Shown: positions 1-4,011 of the stretch, piece after piece | How positions within the stretch are numbered: position 1 is the first letter of the stretch | Layout of the letters: each line of letters starts with the position of its first letter | Assembly: GCA_963693055.1 (NCBI GenBank) | Contig: OY843751.1 | Span: 3,744,001 to 3,808,000, forward strand | DNA length: 64,000 nucleotides | Source of the DNA: a bacterium | Lineage (GTDB): Bacteria; Zhuqueibacterota; Zhuqueibacteria; Residuimicrobiales; Krinioviventaceae | Direction of reading: 5' to 3' | Position numbers and translations under genes: made by a program | The notes under the pieces: model-generated | What the model was told of the DNA's origin: nothing | Database searches by the model: none | The model's input: only the letters and a program-made list of their open reading frames with translations

Positions 1-958
1 TCCAAAAATCTTTGGCTGCGGCCTGCAGATCCTGCTCAATTGCCAGCGAACAGGGTTTGCCCATTTTTACAAAATCCCGCCACAGCTTGAATAGTGTTGG
101 GCTGATTTGAGAAGCACCCAGCAAATAGCCATGCTTTTTCAAATTCTTTCCGTAACGAGCAAGCGCAATAAACCAGTCATTACCAGTAGAAAACTGTACC
201 CGGTCAGGGGCCACTTGTTCAACAATACGCAAACGATCGATATCATCACAAAAATCATACTGACAAAAGAAATTTGATTTTCTGCTTATCAACGCACTTT
301 TGTATTCATGAATTTCAGGGGTTTGTGCAATAATAGATTCAATTTCAAAAAGATTAAAATTTGAACCAAATCCCGGTATACCAATATCCAGTTCAAAAAA
401 AACAAAACCAAAATCGGTAAATTCAGAGACCACCTTGCCAATTTCACGATACGCTTTAATCTTATCATCTGTCGGAGCGTCATACAATCGCTTATCCGGG
501 ACCGGCATATAACGAATACGGCGCGTGGTTTTACGCACCCGAAGGCCGGCATCAATTTCTTTAATCAGTTCACGGGTTTTACCCGCCACATCTTTGATTT
601 CAAGATCAAAAGGATTGGTATTAAGCCCAGCTACAACCAGTGGTCGGTCGCTTGCTATATAGTCTGAATGTTCGGTTGCCAGCTCGGCGGTTCGCCAGAT
701 GAGTCTTTTGGTCAGATCCCAGTCGTTATAAATGGCCCAGGTTGTATCTACATTGGTTGCAGGCACATGGCCTGAGCGCAAAGCGTCAATAACCAGGTTA
801 TCATAACTCTTCCAGTCAAAATTGCCTTTAGGATCCCACGGCCCATAAAGGGCCGTAGTTCCCAGAATTTCTTTATTACATTGACGATCATACACATCCT
901 GTATGGTCACACCTGTAACCGGAGCAGATGCTTGTGTCAATGAAATGCCTTTTGTCAT
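1..958 (-). CDS. Divergent dihydrodipicolinate synthase-like (class I aldolase, DUF993-like) TIM-barrel protein; 3' end beyond window start
   Basis: Absent from the ORF track because it has no stop in the window. Hand translation from ATG at 958 (TAATG overlap with the upstream stop) is open for 319 codons: MTKGISLTQ...GTTALYGPWDPKGNFDWKSY...VPATNVDTTW...VFFELDIGIPGFG...IHEYKSA...FSTGNDW...GYLLGASQ. These motifs resemble the DHDPS-like family, with a candidate Schiff-base Lys in EYKS. Confidence 0.75.
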   Translation of the reverse strand, partial: MTKGISLTQASAPVTGVTIQDVYDRQCNKEILGTTALYGPWDPKGNFDWKSYDNLVIDALRSGHVPATNVDTTWAIYNDWDLTKRLIWRTAELATEHSDYIASDRPLVVAGLNTNPFDLEIKDVAGKTRELIKEIDAGLRVRKTTRRIRYMPVPDKRLYDAPTDDKIKAYREIGKVVSEFTDFGFVFFELDIGIPGFGSNFNLFEIESIIAQTPEIHEYKSALISRKSNFFCQYDFCDDIDRLRIVEQVAPDRVQFSTGNDWFIALARYGKNLKKHGYLLGASQISPTLFKLWRDFVKMGKPCSLAIEQDLQAAAKDFW

Positions 959-2205
959 TAAGGAATTACCCTCAAATTATTTTTCTGTAAACGTTCCGGT
1001 TCCCAATTCGCAGGTACGGGTTTGGGATATTTGAAAAAGTCTTTAGATTCAACCGGAGCGCCATTATTGGCAGCACTGTCATACAAGGCTTCAACCTGGC
1101 CCAGAATATTTAAAGCACTGACAGCGTCTTTTTCATATTTCTTACCGGTCAAAATGCAAGTCAAAAAGTCAGACAATTCATAAGCGAACGGATCATGATA
1201 CGGGAGATCCAGATATTCCCAATGATCTCTCCACTCTATCTTTTCACCTACTACTGATTTTTCCCAGCGATTTGCCGGTGCTGTTTCTTTCCACTGTACC
1301 TTAAGTCCGTACAGTCCGAAAATCATGGAACCACCTTCACCATCAACAGTGATCTCTAAAGGCCCAAACTCGGAATTTACACGACGATACCATGACCAGA
1401 TAGAAGTATTGATTACACCACTGGTATGTTCACGTCGAAGCGCAGCATAATCTTCAACATCACAATCGATCACAGTCTTCCCGTCTGTGCTCATTCTTTT
1501 GGGAACAATCAGTCTTGCAGAGGCACTCAGCCGTTCAGTCTCACCAAACAAGGCATTTGATAAATACCCTTCATGGCACATATCCAAAATAATACCGCCA
1601 CCAGCTTCATTGAATACCCAGTTAAAGTCAGGACGTTGACCAGAGAATTCAGCATTGCCTTCAAGTCCGGCACCTACTTCATAGCCAAACAACATCTGGG
1701 CGCTAAGGGGTTTGATTTTTGGCATCAGTTCAATGGCTTTCAACAAACCGGGGGTAGAGATCATGTGATGTACAACACCGTGAGTAAAACCACCTTTTTC
1801 CATGGCTTCAACAATGGCAAAACCATCATCATAATTGGATGCCAGAGGTTTTTCCATAAAACAAAATGTGGTTTTGGAATCCAACAGAGGTAGTGTATCA
1901 AGTACAACCTGGCGACGGATGCCGGTAGAAATTGTACAATGATAAATCTGAACATCCGGATTTTGACTTTTTGCAAAGGCATACGCTTCCGGAAAGTTAT
2001 TATAGTAATGTTTCAGTCCTTTTTCTTCTGCAACAGCTTTAACTTTGTCAAGATTACGGCTCACTCCAATTGGCAAGGGTTTTACAATATCACCGTTAAC
2101 AATTGTTTTTTCATCATTGGCAATACTATTTAAAGCAGTTAATGCAATTTGTCCCATTCTTCCTGTAACACCATGTATAATTACAGGGACAATTATATTT
2201 GCCAT
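958..2205 (-). CDS. Gfo/Idh/MocA family NAD(P)-dependent oxidoreductase
   Basis: Rossmann motif IIHGVTGRMG, EKPLA, GGGIILDMCH, DVEDYA. Start placed at ATG 2205 (MANIIV), downstream of GGAGG at about 2215-2219, rather than 2274. Confidence 0.85.
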   Translation of the reverse strand: MANIIVPVIIHGVTGRMGQIALTALNSIANDEKTIVNGDIVKPLPIGVSRNLDKVKAVAEEKGLKHYYNNFPEAYAFAKSQNPDVQIYHCTISTGIRRQVVLDTLPLLDSKTTFCFMEKPLASNYDDGFAIVEAMEKGGFTHGVVHHMISTPGLLKAIELMPKIKPLSAQMLFGYEVGAGLEGNAEFSGQRPDFNWVFNEAGGGIILDMCHEGYLSNALFGETERLSASARLIVPKRMSTDGKTVIDCDVEDYAALRREHTSGVINTSIWSWYRRVNSEFGPLEITVDGEGGSMIFGLYGLKVQWKETAPANRWEKSVVGEKIEWRDHWEYLDLPYHDPFAYELSDFLTCILTGKKYEKDAVSALNILGQVEALYDSAANNGAPVESKDFFKYPKPVPANWEPERLQKNNLRVIP

Positions 2206-2239
2206 GTTTATGTTCCTCCATCGTGGATTAATATTTATA

Positions 2240-3295
2240 TTACAACAAACCCTGACGATAAGCCATTTCAGCATTCAGAATTGAACCACCGGCTGCACCG
2301 CGAATCAGGTTATTTGAAAGTGTTACAAAACGAATAATGTTACCCTCTACCTGCAATCTGCCAACAGAGACAGCCATGCCTGCTGCACGGTCAGGGCTAC
2401 CGGCATTCACATCATAACGATGTTGTGGGCGATCAATTTCAGTACGATAAATAACCGCTTGTTCAGGGGCTGTTGGCAAACCTGCAACTTGTTCTGGTGA
2501 CTTGTAATTCTGAAAGGCCGACAATACTTTATCATAATCCATGTCGTTTTCCATTTCCGCGTGAACAGAGATCAGGTGACCAACTATTGCCGGAACACGA
2601 ATACAATGCGCATGGATTTCCCAATCAGCATCCAAAATATGACTATCATTAAACGTACCACAAATCTTTTTGGTTTCGCTCAACAGTTTAGGTTCTTCAT
2701 TGCCGATATACGGAATAACATTTCCCTGAATATCCATAGCAGACAAACCGGGGTATCCGGCACCAGAGATTGCCTGATAACTTGCAACAACGAGGCGTTT
2801 GATGCCCAAAGGAATAATTGGCAGCAGCGCCATGGTTAATCCTGTGGTTGTACAGTTTGCATTGGTTATGATATATCCCTCGGTATCACTTTGTGCTTTG
2901 GTCAAACCAATATGCTCATGGTTTACCTCCGGTATCAAAATAGGTACATTCTTGTCCATACGATAAGAGCTGGCATTTGAAAAAACCTTGATACCCTGTT
3001 TAGCAGCTTTTTTTTCTATGGTATCTGCAATATCTGCCGGCAAAGCTGAAAAGATCACTTTAATCTCTTTTTCCATCAATACATCAACATCAATAGGATC
3101 AAAAACCAGATCAGTAAAAGTTTCAGGTATACCACCATTAATATGCTCTTTCATCTCGCCCAGTGTTTTACCCGTACGTGCTTCACTGGCACAAACAGCG
3201 CCAAGCTCAAAATAGGGATGACCGTTCAAGAGTTTTAAAAAATGCTGGCCTACAACACCGGTTGCACCCAATACTGCACATTTTACTTTTTTCAT
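2240..3295 (-). CDS. asd: Aspartate-semialdehyde dehydrogenase (archaeal/eukaryotic-type)
   Basis: AVLGATGVVGQ, catalytic NANCTT, YQAISGAGYPG, HCIRVP..GH, NNLIRGAAGGSILNAE. Start at ATG 3295 after GAGGA. Confidence 0.95.
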   Translation of the reverse strand: MKKVKCAVLGATGVVGQHFLKLLNGHPYFELGAVCASEARTGKTLGEMKEHINGGIPETFTDLVFDPIDVDVLMEKEIKVIFSALPADIADTIEKKAAKQGIKVFSNASSYRMDKNVPILIPEVNHEHIGLTKAQSDTEGYIITNANCTTTGLTMALLPIIPLGIKRLVVASYQAISGAGYPGLSAMDIQGNVIPYIGNEEPKLLSETKKICGTFNDSHILDADWEIHAHCIRVPAIVGHLISVHAEMENDMDYDKVLSAFQNYKSPEQVAGLPTAPEQAVIYRTEIDRPQHRYDVNAGSPDRAAGMAVSVGRLQVEGNIIRFVTLSNNLIRGAAGGSILNAEMAYRQGLL

Positions 3296-3333
3296 AACAT
3301 CCTCGTTTATTATATGTTTTTTCATTAAATACT

Positions 3334-3369
3334 AAAAAAAAAGCCCACAGTGTAGTTCTCTGCGGGCTT
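3334..3369 (-). terminator. Intrinsic terminator of the asd attenuator
   Basis: Minus strand AAGCCCGCAG-AGAACTACA-CTGTGGGCTT-TTTTTTT: 10-bp stem with one G-U, then a U-tract. Lies between the leader ORF and the asd RBS. Confidence 0.9.
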
Positions 3370-3391
3370 GGAAATTCTAATGGATATAGTA

Positions 3392-3454
3392 TTATAAAGC
3401 CCAACTCTTTTTAAAAGTCTTTTTCATTGTTTTCTTTTTCATATCAATAGTCAT
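3392..3454 (-). CDS. Attenuator leader peptide MTIDMKKKTMKKTFKKSWAL (20 aa)
   Basis: Hand translation: 7 Lys, 3 Thr, 3 Met, 1 Ile, 1 Asp. AAGAGA lies just upstream of the ATG. The last codons contain TGGGCTT, complementary to the terminator 5' arm. Confidence 0.85.
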   Translation of the reverse strand: MTIDMKKKTMKKTFKKSWAL

Positions 3455-3478
3455 AATTATCTCTTATATTAGTCATAT

Positions 3479-3507
3479 AAATTACTCATTTCCTGACGAA
3501 ATGTCAA
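3479..3507 (-). promoter_or_regulatory. Sigma70-type promoter for the leader/asd operon
   Basis: Minus strand TTGACA-17 nt-TAATTT, about 25 nt upstream of the leader ATG. Confidence 0.6.
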
Positions 3508-3579
3508 GATTTAATATTGGCTTTTTTGTTTAGGAATTCTTATAATATAGTGGTAACTGTTAAATGGAAATGATCAGTA

Positions 3580-4011
3580 TTGCGATTTGAAATTAAAAAA
3601 ACAGGCTTTACCAAAGTATTACCGGGATTGTTTTTCGCAGTAATTGGCAGCACAGGTGTTGCTGTAATTCATTTTTTTCCAGAGATATTGAATCAAATAC
3701 CCGCTTGTATGTTCAGAGAATTTTTTAATATTCCATGTCCGGCTTGCGGAGCAACACATAGTGGTATACACCTGGCTCATCTTAACATACCGGCTGCTCT
3801 GTTGGCCAATCCGTTTTTCTTTATGGTATATATTTTAATATTCCTATGGAGTTTGAATGCTCTGGCAGGATTATTGTTCAAGAAAAACATACAAATTGTT
3901 TTGTCATTAAAAGAGCAAACAATTCTTTACAGGCTTGTTCTTGTATCATTTCCACTAAACTGGCTGTTTTTAATTCTCATTTCTATTTTTACAGGAAGAA
4001 ATGGGCAATAA
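3580..4011 (+). CDS. DUF2752-type membrane protein
   Basis: PACMFREFFNIPCPACGATHS motif, ANP motif and hydrophobic helices. Confidence 0.75.
   Translation: MRFEIKKTGFTKVLPGLFFAVIGSTGVAVIHFFPEILNQIPACMFREFFNIPCPACGATHSGIHLAHLNIPAALLANPFFFMVYILIFLWSLNALAGLLFKKNIQIVLSLKEQTILYRLVLVSFPLNWLFLILISIFTGRNGQ

Follow-up and report, generated by a model that had tools for sequence, protein, structure and literature searches.

The asd locus and its leader

The window, by which we mean the whole stretch of 64,000 nucleotides that was analysed, carries a gene for aspartate-semialdehyde dehydrogenase (asd) on its minus strand. The product matches the Pfam families PF01118 and PF02774 (the N and C domains of Semialdhyde_dh) and the NCBIfam model TIGR00978 (asd_EA), the latter with 404.8 bits against a cut-off of 301, and no other strong Asd match occurs in the genome, the runner-up having an E value of 3.3e-7. 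The Asd step is common to the synthesis of lysine, threonine, methionine, and isoleucine; therefore, its control must weigh several end products at once. Two tightly packed ORFs lie behind asd and, as far as the ORF overlaps alone indicate, are likely co-transcribed with it. In front of the gene, a promoter-like site, a leader ORF, a terminator hairpin, and asd itself follow one another in that order on the minus strand of positions 3290-3520. The features are listed in Table 1. The T run behind the hairpin is separated from the asd start codon by 38 bases. Because the upstream gene is divergent, the hairpin cannot terminate a preceding gene.

Table 1. Features of the asd locus, in positions of the window.
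Feature	Position	Strand	Basis or remark
-35-like hexamer	3502-3507	minus	6/6 positions equal to the sigma-70 -35 consensus; inferred from sequence
-10-like hexamer	3479-3484	minus	17-base spacer from the -35-like hexamer; 3/6 consensus positions
Sigma-70-like promoter, whole	3479-3507	minus	Putative, from sequence
Leader ORF, 20 codons + TAA	3392-3454	minus	ATG 3454-3452, TAA 3394-3392; candidate ORF from sequence
Candidate sensing codons	3407-3451	minus	Lys 6-8, 11, 12, 15, 16; Thr 2, 9, 13; Met 5, 10; predicted
Box, 5′ strand of the predicted antiterminator	3397-3403	minus	7 bases; overlaps the last three sense codons
Terminator 5′ arm	3360-3369	minus	Common to terminator and antiterminator
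Terminator loop	3359-3351	minus	9 bases
Terminator 3′ arm	3350-3341	minus	Hairpin of 10 bp
Run of nine T	3342-3334	minus	Ends at 3334
Shine-Dalgarno-like stretch of asd	3304-3300	minus	Sequence
asd, aspartate-semialdehyde dehydrogenase, presumed regulated gene	2240-3295	minus	Pfam and NCBIfam
GFO/IDH/MocA-type oxidoreductase ORF	958-2274	minus	Pfam; overlaps asd
ORF without family match, cut by the window edge	2-958	minus	Pfam and NCBIfam searched
Upstream gene, divergent, DUF2752	3580-4011	plus	Pfam

A first-pass annotation of this DNA had described a leader peptide in which Lys, Thr, Met, Ile, and Asp account for 15 of the first 16 residues. This translation is exact: the 16 residues comprise seven Lys, three Thr, three Met, one Ile, one Asp, and one Phe. 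No A run in the leader exceeds five, and the Shine-Dalgarno sequence of the leader ORF is weak. The composition is unusual for a small ORF of this genome. Among 4054 ATG-started ORFs of 15-35 codons that lie outside long ORFs, a set that includes the leader itself, one reaches ten Lys plus Thr in residues 2-16, and three reach seven Lys.

The same annotation had pointed to the motif TGGGCTT in the final codons as a copy of part of the terminator 3′ arm that could sequester the 5′ arm, and both statements are correct at the level of single bases. The box (3403-3397) has the same seven bases as 3347-3341 of the 3′ arm, and it is complementary to 3369-3363 of the 5′ arm through six Watson-Crick pairs and one G-U pair. 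The best complement of the 5′ arm anywhere in the leader lies at bases 49-59 of the ORF, the box included. The predicted antiterminator duplex has a calculated energy of -10.6 kcal/mol, a value attained in 7 of 300 shuffled versions of the leader (dinucleotide shuffling), and it is thus short and weak beside the terminator. The terminator hairpin (-15.6 kcal/mol) begins 22 bases after the TAA codon and is present in both the minimum-energy and the centroid folds of 3290-3480; this region folds with -29.9 kcal/mol (z = -2.0), and 6 of 200 shuffles are at least as stable. A simple terminator scan of the window did not list the asd-leader hairpin, because its 9-base loop exceeds the limit of 8 set in that scan. 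Similarly, the promoter scan did not list the -10-like hexamer because of its low number of consensus matches.

Known regulatory RNA families do not account for the element. No Rfam family reaches its gathering threshold anywhere in the window, and the scores at the locus are 17.3 bits for Thr_leader (RF00506, threshold 55), 19.4 bits for Trp_leader (RF00513, threshold 41), and 27.1 bits for the trpB motif (RF04312, threshold 59). The lysine riboswitch (RF00168) and the T-box gave no match in 3100-3800 even at E values up to 10. Because RF00168 finds a target elsewhere in the genome, this negative result at the asd locus is meaningful. The target is a lysine riboswitch (125.3 bits, threshold 30) in front of an operon with a dapE-like gene, lysC, dapB, and dapA. 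The first-pass annotation had contrasted the leader with the L-box and T-box control that is more usual for lysine genes; the contrast applies to the asd locus, where neither is found, but not to the genome, in which an L-box serves the lysC-dap operon. A riboswitch and a leader peptide thus coexist in one genome, and neither replaces the other.

The genome holds three aspartokinase genes. The leader of thrA (aspartokinase-homoserine dehydrogenase) has a hairpin and a T run but no Thr-rich ORF. Leaders with runs of a single codon type are found at other loci of the genome. His accounts for six of seven codons in the one before hisG, and Trp-run leaders precede a TrpB-like gene and an ORF of 491 residues.

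Distribution and conservation among relatives

An Asd protein search gave one strong match per genome in 40 relatives. The family of the window's genome is represented by 19 genomes, 16 of which have asd. Conservation upstream of asd orthologs, which had been named as a check of the attenuator reading, is extensive: the leader layout stands before asd, or before a UPF0280-like gene followed by asd, in 15 of these 16 genomes. A script that covered 450 bases upstream found a Lys/Thr-rich leader, a box, and a terminator directly in front of asd in 13 of the 16. In one family member (G004), a Met/Lys-rich leader precedes the UPF0280-like gene and asd. Another (G008) has kept the ORF, the box, and the terminator with a Phe/Ser-rich peptide that contains one Lys. 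In G012, whose contig begins 155 bases before asd, the promoter and the terminator are kept and the stretch with the ORF and the box is absent, although the congener G002 has it. One leader ORF (L016) runs through the terminator. The layout is also found in two genomes from other families of the order. In G022, from a neighbouring family, the element lies one gene further up, as in G004, and its leader is rich in Met and Lys. No Rfam match was found at E values up to 0.1 in four relatives that lack the leader (L020, L024, L021, and L029).

A covariance model (R1) was built from 14 leader sequences. Its matches number one per genome and always lie upstream of asd or of its operon. Within the order, 16 of 43 genomes are matched, namely the window's genome and 13 of 18 further members of its family, the single genome of family f5, and one of eight genomes of family f4, with none among the 14 genomes of f2 and the one of f3. 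In the phylum sample, matches occur in 14 of 151 genomes, all in two families. In the window's genome, the asd leader is the single strong match (85.2 bits) and the next one has 41.9 bits; apart from the weakly scoring His and Trp leaders (41.7 and 31.4 bits), the R1 scan for further copies there returned just generic terminators. A scan of the genome for terminators with small ORFs gave a high background, and its filter on the stop position passed over the His leader. A separate scan covered 78 of 80 fetched asd loci, mostly from Acidobacteriota, Ignavibacteria, and archaea, over 400 bases upstream with an ATG start and a threshold of five Lys/Thr in ten residues. It found a Lys/Thr-rich small ORF with a terminator before asd only at the two loci that belong to the order.

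The peptide sequence of the leaders is not conserved among the relatives, but the composition is. In the pool of 16 leaders (L002 was dropped because it is identical to L001), the 228 residues before the box include 59 Lys (26%), 40 Thr (18%), 25 Met (11%), and 3 Asp plus Glu, compared with 6.1% Lys, 5.6% Thr, and 2.4% Met in the long ORFs. The enrichment across relatives is limited to these three amino acids. The description of the leader as one of the whole aspartate family, given in the first-pass annotation, therefore stands for Lys, Thr, and Met, but not for Asp, which is not enriched, and it is doubtful for Ile. Several relatives have runs of seven to eight A inside their Lys codons. A-rich DNA readily yields Lys codons; that Thr and Met codons are frequent too, and that the alternative frames are closed, argues against chance without proving sensing. 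The +1 frame is interrupted by stops in most leaders, and in most relatives stops occur in both alternative frames. Between the two genomes of the window's genus, both substitutions in the ORF are synonymous and the untranslated flanks have changed more, although the numbers are small.

Unlike the peptide sequence, the arrangement of signals around the ORF is conserved. Each of the 20 leaders examined has an equivalent of the box where its ORF ends, and no other segment of the leader complements the 5′ arm better. The box is conserved as nucleotides and is read in three registers among the genomes. Measured from the first base of the stop codon, the end of the box falls between 21 bases before and 8 bases after it in 19 of the 20 leaders (16 of the 17 in the order); in L016, it ends 50 bases before the stop. 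The distance from the stop codon to the stem is 15-35 bases in 19 of the 20 leaders and 15-33 bases in 16 of the 17 of the order. In 12 of 17 leaders, the observed duplex energy is reached by at most 7 of 300 dinucleotide shuffles, and in the other five by 10, 12, 17, 36, and 49 of 300. Of 17 related leaders, 16 have a promoter-like site with the same 5-base -35 core, a 17-base spacer, and a hexamer of the form T-A-n-n-(T/A)-T, at a distance of 47-76 bases before the start codon. Shine-Dalgarno-like stretches precede the leader start in most relatives, and the T run lies 18-53 bases before the asd start in most of them.

Covariation was analysed for both helices. In the alignment of 16 relatives, 98.1% of the terminator cells pair and four pairs are changed on both sides, a result that none of 500 shuffles reaches. 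For the antiterminator, 73.7% of the cells pair across the alignment compared with 74.6% in shuffles, the core pairs being nearly invariant and two leaders (L013 and L019) standing out of register; slid registers give 28-53%. Because these two leaders are misaligned in both the MAFFT and the model-made alignments, the antiterminator count is conservative. Support for the antiterminator is instead drawn from changes in individual leaders and from the unrelated version in family f9 described below. In L013, one and the same pair is altered in all three elements, that is, in the box and in both terminator arms; in L011, a change in the box converts a G-U pair to G-C; and in L015 and L009, differing flanks of the arm are matched by differing flanks of the box. 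Taken together, the element upstream of asd is a real, conserved cis-regulatory element.

Outside the order, 52 of the 53 asd loci of the phylum sample were searched for leaders (G142, a partial match, was omitted). Applied to the order itself, the criterion of six Lys/Thr/Met in ten residues picks up 14 of its 17 leaders; the search is thus not exhaustive. In three genomes, all from genus g27 of family f9, asd is preceded by leaders of 27-29 codons that are rich in Thr, Lys, Met, and Ile; they are dominated by Thr and Met and contain few Lys. The terminator arms and the box of g27 are unrelated in sequence to those of the window's family. The box nevertheless lies just before the stop codon and, as in the window, copies the terminator 3′ arm. 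In g27, the gene behind asd is of the aspartokinase type and carries AA_kinase and ACT domains.

The make-up of the leader varies with the content of the operon, a correlation drawn from few, related genomes. Where asd stands alone, the leader is rich in Lys and Thr; where a gene matching NCBIfam NF003324 precedes asd, it is rich in Met and Lys; and where asd is followed by an aspartokinase gene, it is rich in Thr, Met, Lys, and Ile. In G004 and G022, the gene between the leader and asd encodes 240 residues, overlaps asd, and matches NF003324 with 285 bits. NF003324 has no match in the window's genome and, among 14 control genomes, matches only two methanogens, which fits the COG2122/UPF0280 family, to which we take NF003324 to correspond. 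According to the available excerpt of PMC5764234, the COG2122/UPF0280 family is required for making homocysteine from aspartate semialdehyde. For gene X, no Pfam match was found, and the search of solved structures returned just a hypothetical protein.

Proposed mechanism and alternative explanations

From the anatomy, conservation, and codon composition of the leader, which are observed, we infer its translation, the stalling of ribosomes on it, and a kinetic choice between the two helices. The leader is probably a ribosome-mediated (leader-peptide) transcription attenuator of asd that would raise expression when Lys, Thr, or Met is short. Transcription would begin approximately 25 bases before the leader ORF, with a ribosome trailing the polymerase. 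When the tRNAs for Lys, Thr, and probably Met are charged, the ribosome would reach the stop codon and cover the box, the terminator hairpin would form, and transcription would end at approximately 3334-3340. When one of the amino acids is short, the ribosome would stall at codons 2-13 and leave the box free. The free box could then pair with the terminator 5′ arm while the 3′ arm is still to be transcribed, which would allow read-through into asd and the two genes behind it. In this way, a single leader would respond to several end products of the aspartate pathway in the manner of an OR gate.

Folding predictions with ribosome masking, which had likewise been named as a check, are consistent with most of this scheme. 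A ribosome that has reached the stop codon is predicted to cover the box and to let the terminator form, as the first-pass annotation had proposed. In nascent RNA extending to the loop, the box is predicted to pair with the 5′ arm through six to seven pairs if it is free or if the ribosome stands at the Lys or Thr codons 2-13. The proposal that a stall on upstream Lys codons frees the box holds for these positions but not for the last two Lys codons, because predicted stalls at codons 15 and 16 leave four pairs and none, respectively. In the model, codons 15 and 16 cannot act as sensors, since a ribosome stalled there would cover the box.

For the complete RNA of the window's leader at equilibrium, the masking folds favour the terminator at every stall position; therefore, the model needs kinetic control, like the classical cases. 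In eight relatives (L004, L005, L008, L010, L011, L012, L019, and L007), a region-1 helix of -12 to -19 kcal/mol forms between the early ORF and the box and gives them the classical four-region design. The helix is absent in the window's genus, which has three pairing regions, and without it the masking folds predict that untranslated RNA would read through. The attribution of the element to trp/thr-type attenuation logic is supported by the anatomy and by the relatives, including the unrelated version in f9.

Three other explanations were weighed against the attenuator. The small ORF could be incidental to a terminator/antiterminator switch that depends on a protein, a tRNA, or a small molecule and works without translation. 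The two helices alone would make such a switch, the Shine-Dalgarno sequence in the window is weak, and G008 retains the RNA layout with a very different peptide. However, no Rfam family reaches its threshold, neither a riboswitch nor a T-box is matched, and there is no conserved structured aptamer. What is conserved from the promoter to the box is an open frame and its codon composition, and not sequence or structure. Start codons with Shine-Dalgarno-like stretches recur and the relation of stop codon and box is fixed. The change of leader composition with operon content also speaks against an incidental ORF, as do the similarly built His and Trp leaders of the genome. We therefore consider a translation-independent switch unlikely. 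What the ribosome reads could also be general translation capacity instead of particular amino acids, with the A tracts of the Lys codons slowing or slipping ribosomes or polymerase as a stress read-out. A tracts can stall or slip ribosomes, and the runs of seven to eight A in several relatives would suit this idea. The window's leader, with no A run above five, does not, nor do the additional enrichment of Thr and Met codons and the leaders of f9 with their few Lys. Moreover, the genes in question (asd, an aspartokinase gene, and a methionine-pathway gene) match the enriched amino acids exactly, so that a general stress read-out has a low probability.

Finally, the ORF and the terminator might constitute a separate gene for a small protein or a small RNA, with asd transcribed from a promoter of its own. 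A terminated transcript of approximately 140 bases is expected in any case, and dual-function attenuator RNAs exist; one example, in the available excerpt of PMC10117765, is rnTrpL of Sinorhizobium. The short distance between the T run and asd in the window and in most relatives speaks against a separate gene, and no conserved promoter-like site is found between the T run and asd. Since the peptide sequence is unconserved and the element is always linked to asd, this explanation is very improbable. Judged on its sequence features, the asd leader is most likely a leader-peptide attenuator that senses Lys and Thr, and possibly Met.

Combining the attenuator with the riboswitch of the same genome suggests a division of tasks. 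The lysine-specific branch would thus be read by the riboswitch, and the shared step at asd by a multi-amino-acid leader. A broader reading, to which we give about an even chance, is that one multi-input OR-gate leader has its codon make-up retuned with the operon and leaves the lysine-only branch to the riboswitch, and that such leaders form a convergent, widespread, and uncatalogued class. If the multi-input reading is true, this form of control evolved repeatedly: two families of the phylum have it with unrelated helices, and, going by PMC10117765, it would occur in another phylum too. The locus would offer a small system in which multi-input sensing by codon composition can be tested, and the asd leader together with the lysine riboswitch an example of split regulatory labour within one genome. 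The R1 model and the approximately twenty instances could seed a new RNA family.

Comparison with known systems

At asd, an attenuation signal appears to be in use in a lineage that is represented by assembled genomes only. The mechanism itself is textbook knowledge, but its use on asd is barely documented, and Lys as the dominant sensed codon is rare among described leader peptides. For E. coli asd, the title of a paper from 1982 reportedly states that a typical attenuation signal is absent there. The closest classical counterpart is thrL of Enterobacteria, which reads two amino acids, Thr and Ile. Like the asd leader, for which the antiterminator helix is a prediction, it combines a short ORF, alternative helices, and an intrinsic terminator in front of aspartate-family genes. 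It differs in its target, which is thrABC and not asd, in the codons read, which in the asd leader are mainly Lys and then Thr and Met, and in having four pairing regions compared with three in the window's genus. The thr operon attenuator is covered in general terms in the available excerpt of PMC12925634.

A literature search for a Lys/Thr leader before asd returned nothing beyond PMC10117765. The available excerpt of that paper describes SEP5 of Sinorhizobium meliloti, a translated small ORF whose 3′-terminal part contains six Thr and three Lys codons and which sits in the 5′-UTR of a gene named aspartate dehydrogenase and is, according to the authors, possibly a leader peptide. As described there, SEP5 resembles the window's leader in being a Thr/Lys-coding small ORF before an asd-like gene. 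It differs in belonging to another phylum, in being dominated by Thr, and in being said to be conserved only in Sinorhizobium. The evidence also differs in kind, because SEP5 is described in that excerpt as translated but with no account of a terminator or an antiterminator, whereas the window's leader is characterized by sequence anatomy and a wide comparison. The multivalent, Lys-dominated attenuator proposed in the first-pass annotation fits none of the Rfam families, but it has some precedent in this Thr/Lys small ORF of Sinorhizobium.

Lysine-responsive control of the aspartate pathway, usually through a terminator, is shared by the L-box (RF00168) and the asd leader. The L-box aptamer, however, senses its ligand directly. 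In Thermus thermophilus, a lysine gene cluster is reportedly preceded by a lysine-codon leader peptide with transcription attenuation that reads Lys alone; that leader is said to differ from the one described here in controlling genes of the aminoadipate pathway and not asd, and the two are not known to be related in sequence. The nearest parallels in design are found in the window's own genome, where the His and Trp leaders have the same succession of a short ORF, a run of sensed codons, and an intrinsic terminator as the asd leader, and differ from it in that each senses one amino acid.

Relatives with a deviating putative asd attenuator

Three relatives of the window's genome deviate in the region upstream of the aspartate-semialdehyde dehydrogenase gene, asd, where leader ORF, box (the 7-base copy of the terminator 3′ arm near the leader stop codon) and terminator usually stand. 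When G012 (L017:1-155) is compared with G002 (L019), approximately 90 bases containing the leader ORF and the box are missing, whereas the promoter and terminator are kept. Because the G012 contig begins at this stretch, these bases may have been deleted in the genome or may be absent only through an assembly artefact. Should the loss be genuine, asd would have an unopposed terminator in front of it.

In G008, the layout is kept, but the peptide is rich in Phe and Ser with only one Lys, and the leader gave no match to R1, the covariance model of the attenuator, at E-values up to 0.001. In G011 (L008), approximately 220 bases separate the T run of the attenuator from asd, compared with 18–53 in the other relatives, and the extra stretch between terminator and asd contains an additional inverted repeat.

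Genes probably sharing an operon with asd

The coordinates of the genes and leaders are collected in the table. At L007, a Met/Lys-rich leader stands upstream of a gene of the NCBIfam family NF003324, which we take to be the UPF0280/COG2122 homocysteine-pathway family; L014 holds a counterpart of both. A family search of the window's own genome found no NF003324 member. In genus g27 of f9, another family of the phylum, a Thr/Met/Lys/Ile-rich leader precedes asd and an aspartokinase-type gene. Two further ORFs in the window overlap in series with asd.

Coordinates of leaders, genes and regulatory features
Feature	Position	Strand	Remark
G008 leader	L009, 136-82 bases upstream of asd		ORF, box, terminator
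NF003324 gene, 240 residues	L007:774-1505	+	overlaps asd start
Aspartokinase-type gene (AA_kinase + ACT domains), g27	L190:57-1481	+	follows asd
Aspartokinase-type gene (AA_kinase + ACT domains), g27	L191:1998-3452	-	follows asd
GFO/IDH/MocA-type oxidoreductase ORF	window 958-2274	-	35-base overlap with asd
ORF without family match	window 2-958	-	1-base overlap with ORF 958-2274; truncated by window edge
Aspartokinase-homoserine dehydrogenase gene	G000:C1:3532946-3535384	-	
Promoter-like site and terminator-like hairpin with T run	L113, about 220-250	-	in the 5′ leader of the aspartokinase-homoserine dehydrogenase gene
Lysine riboswitch RF00168	L112:180-360 = G000:C1 about 3409729-3409909	-	Rfam, 125.3 bits
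Trp-run leader	L122:1434-1505	+	with terminator; upstream of TrpB-like gene
TrpB-like gene	L122:1616-2989		
Trp-run leader	L115:313-384	-	with terminator; upstream of 491-residue ORF
His leader, 15 codons	L118:1579-1626	-	upstream of hisG
hisG	L118:577-1470	-	

Leaders of other amino acid genes in the window's genome

The 5′ leader of the aspartokinase-homoserine dehydrogenase gene contains no Thr-rich ORF and gave no Rfam match at E-values up to 0.1. The lysine riboswitch precedes an operon of a dapE-like gene, an aspartokinase, a dapB-size gene and dapA. Among the two Trp-run leaders, that at L122 scored 29.6 bits against the Rfam Trp_leader family, under the threshold of 41. In the His leader, six of seven consecutive codons encode His, and a strong terminator follows.
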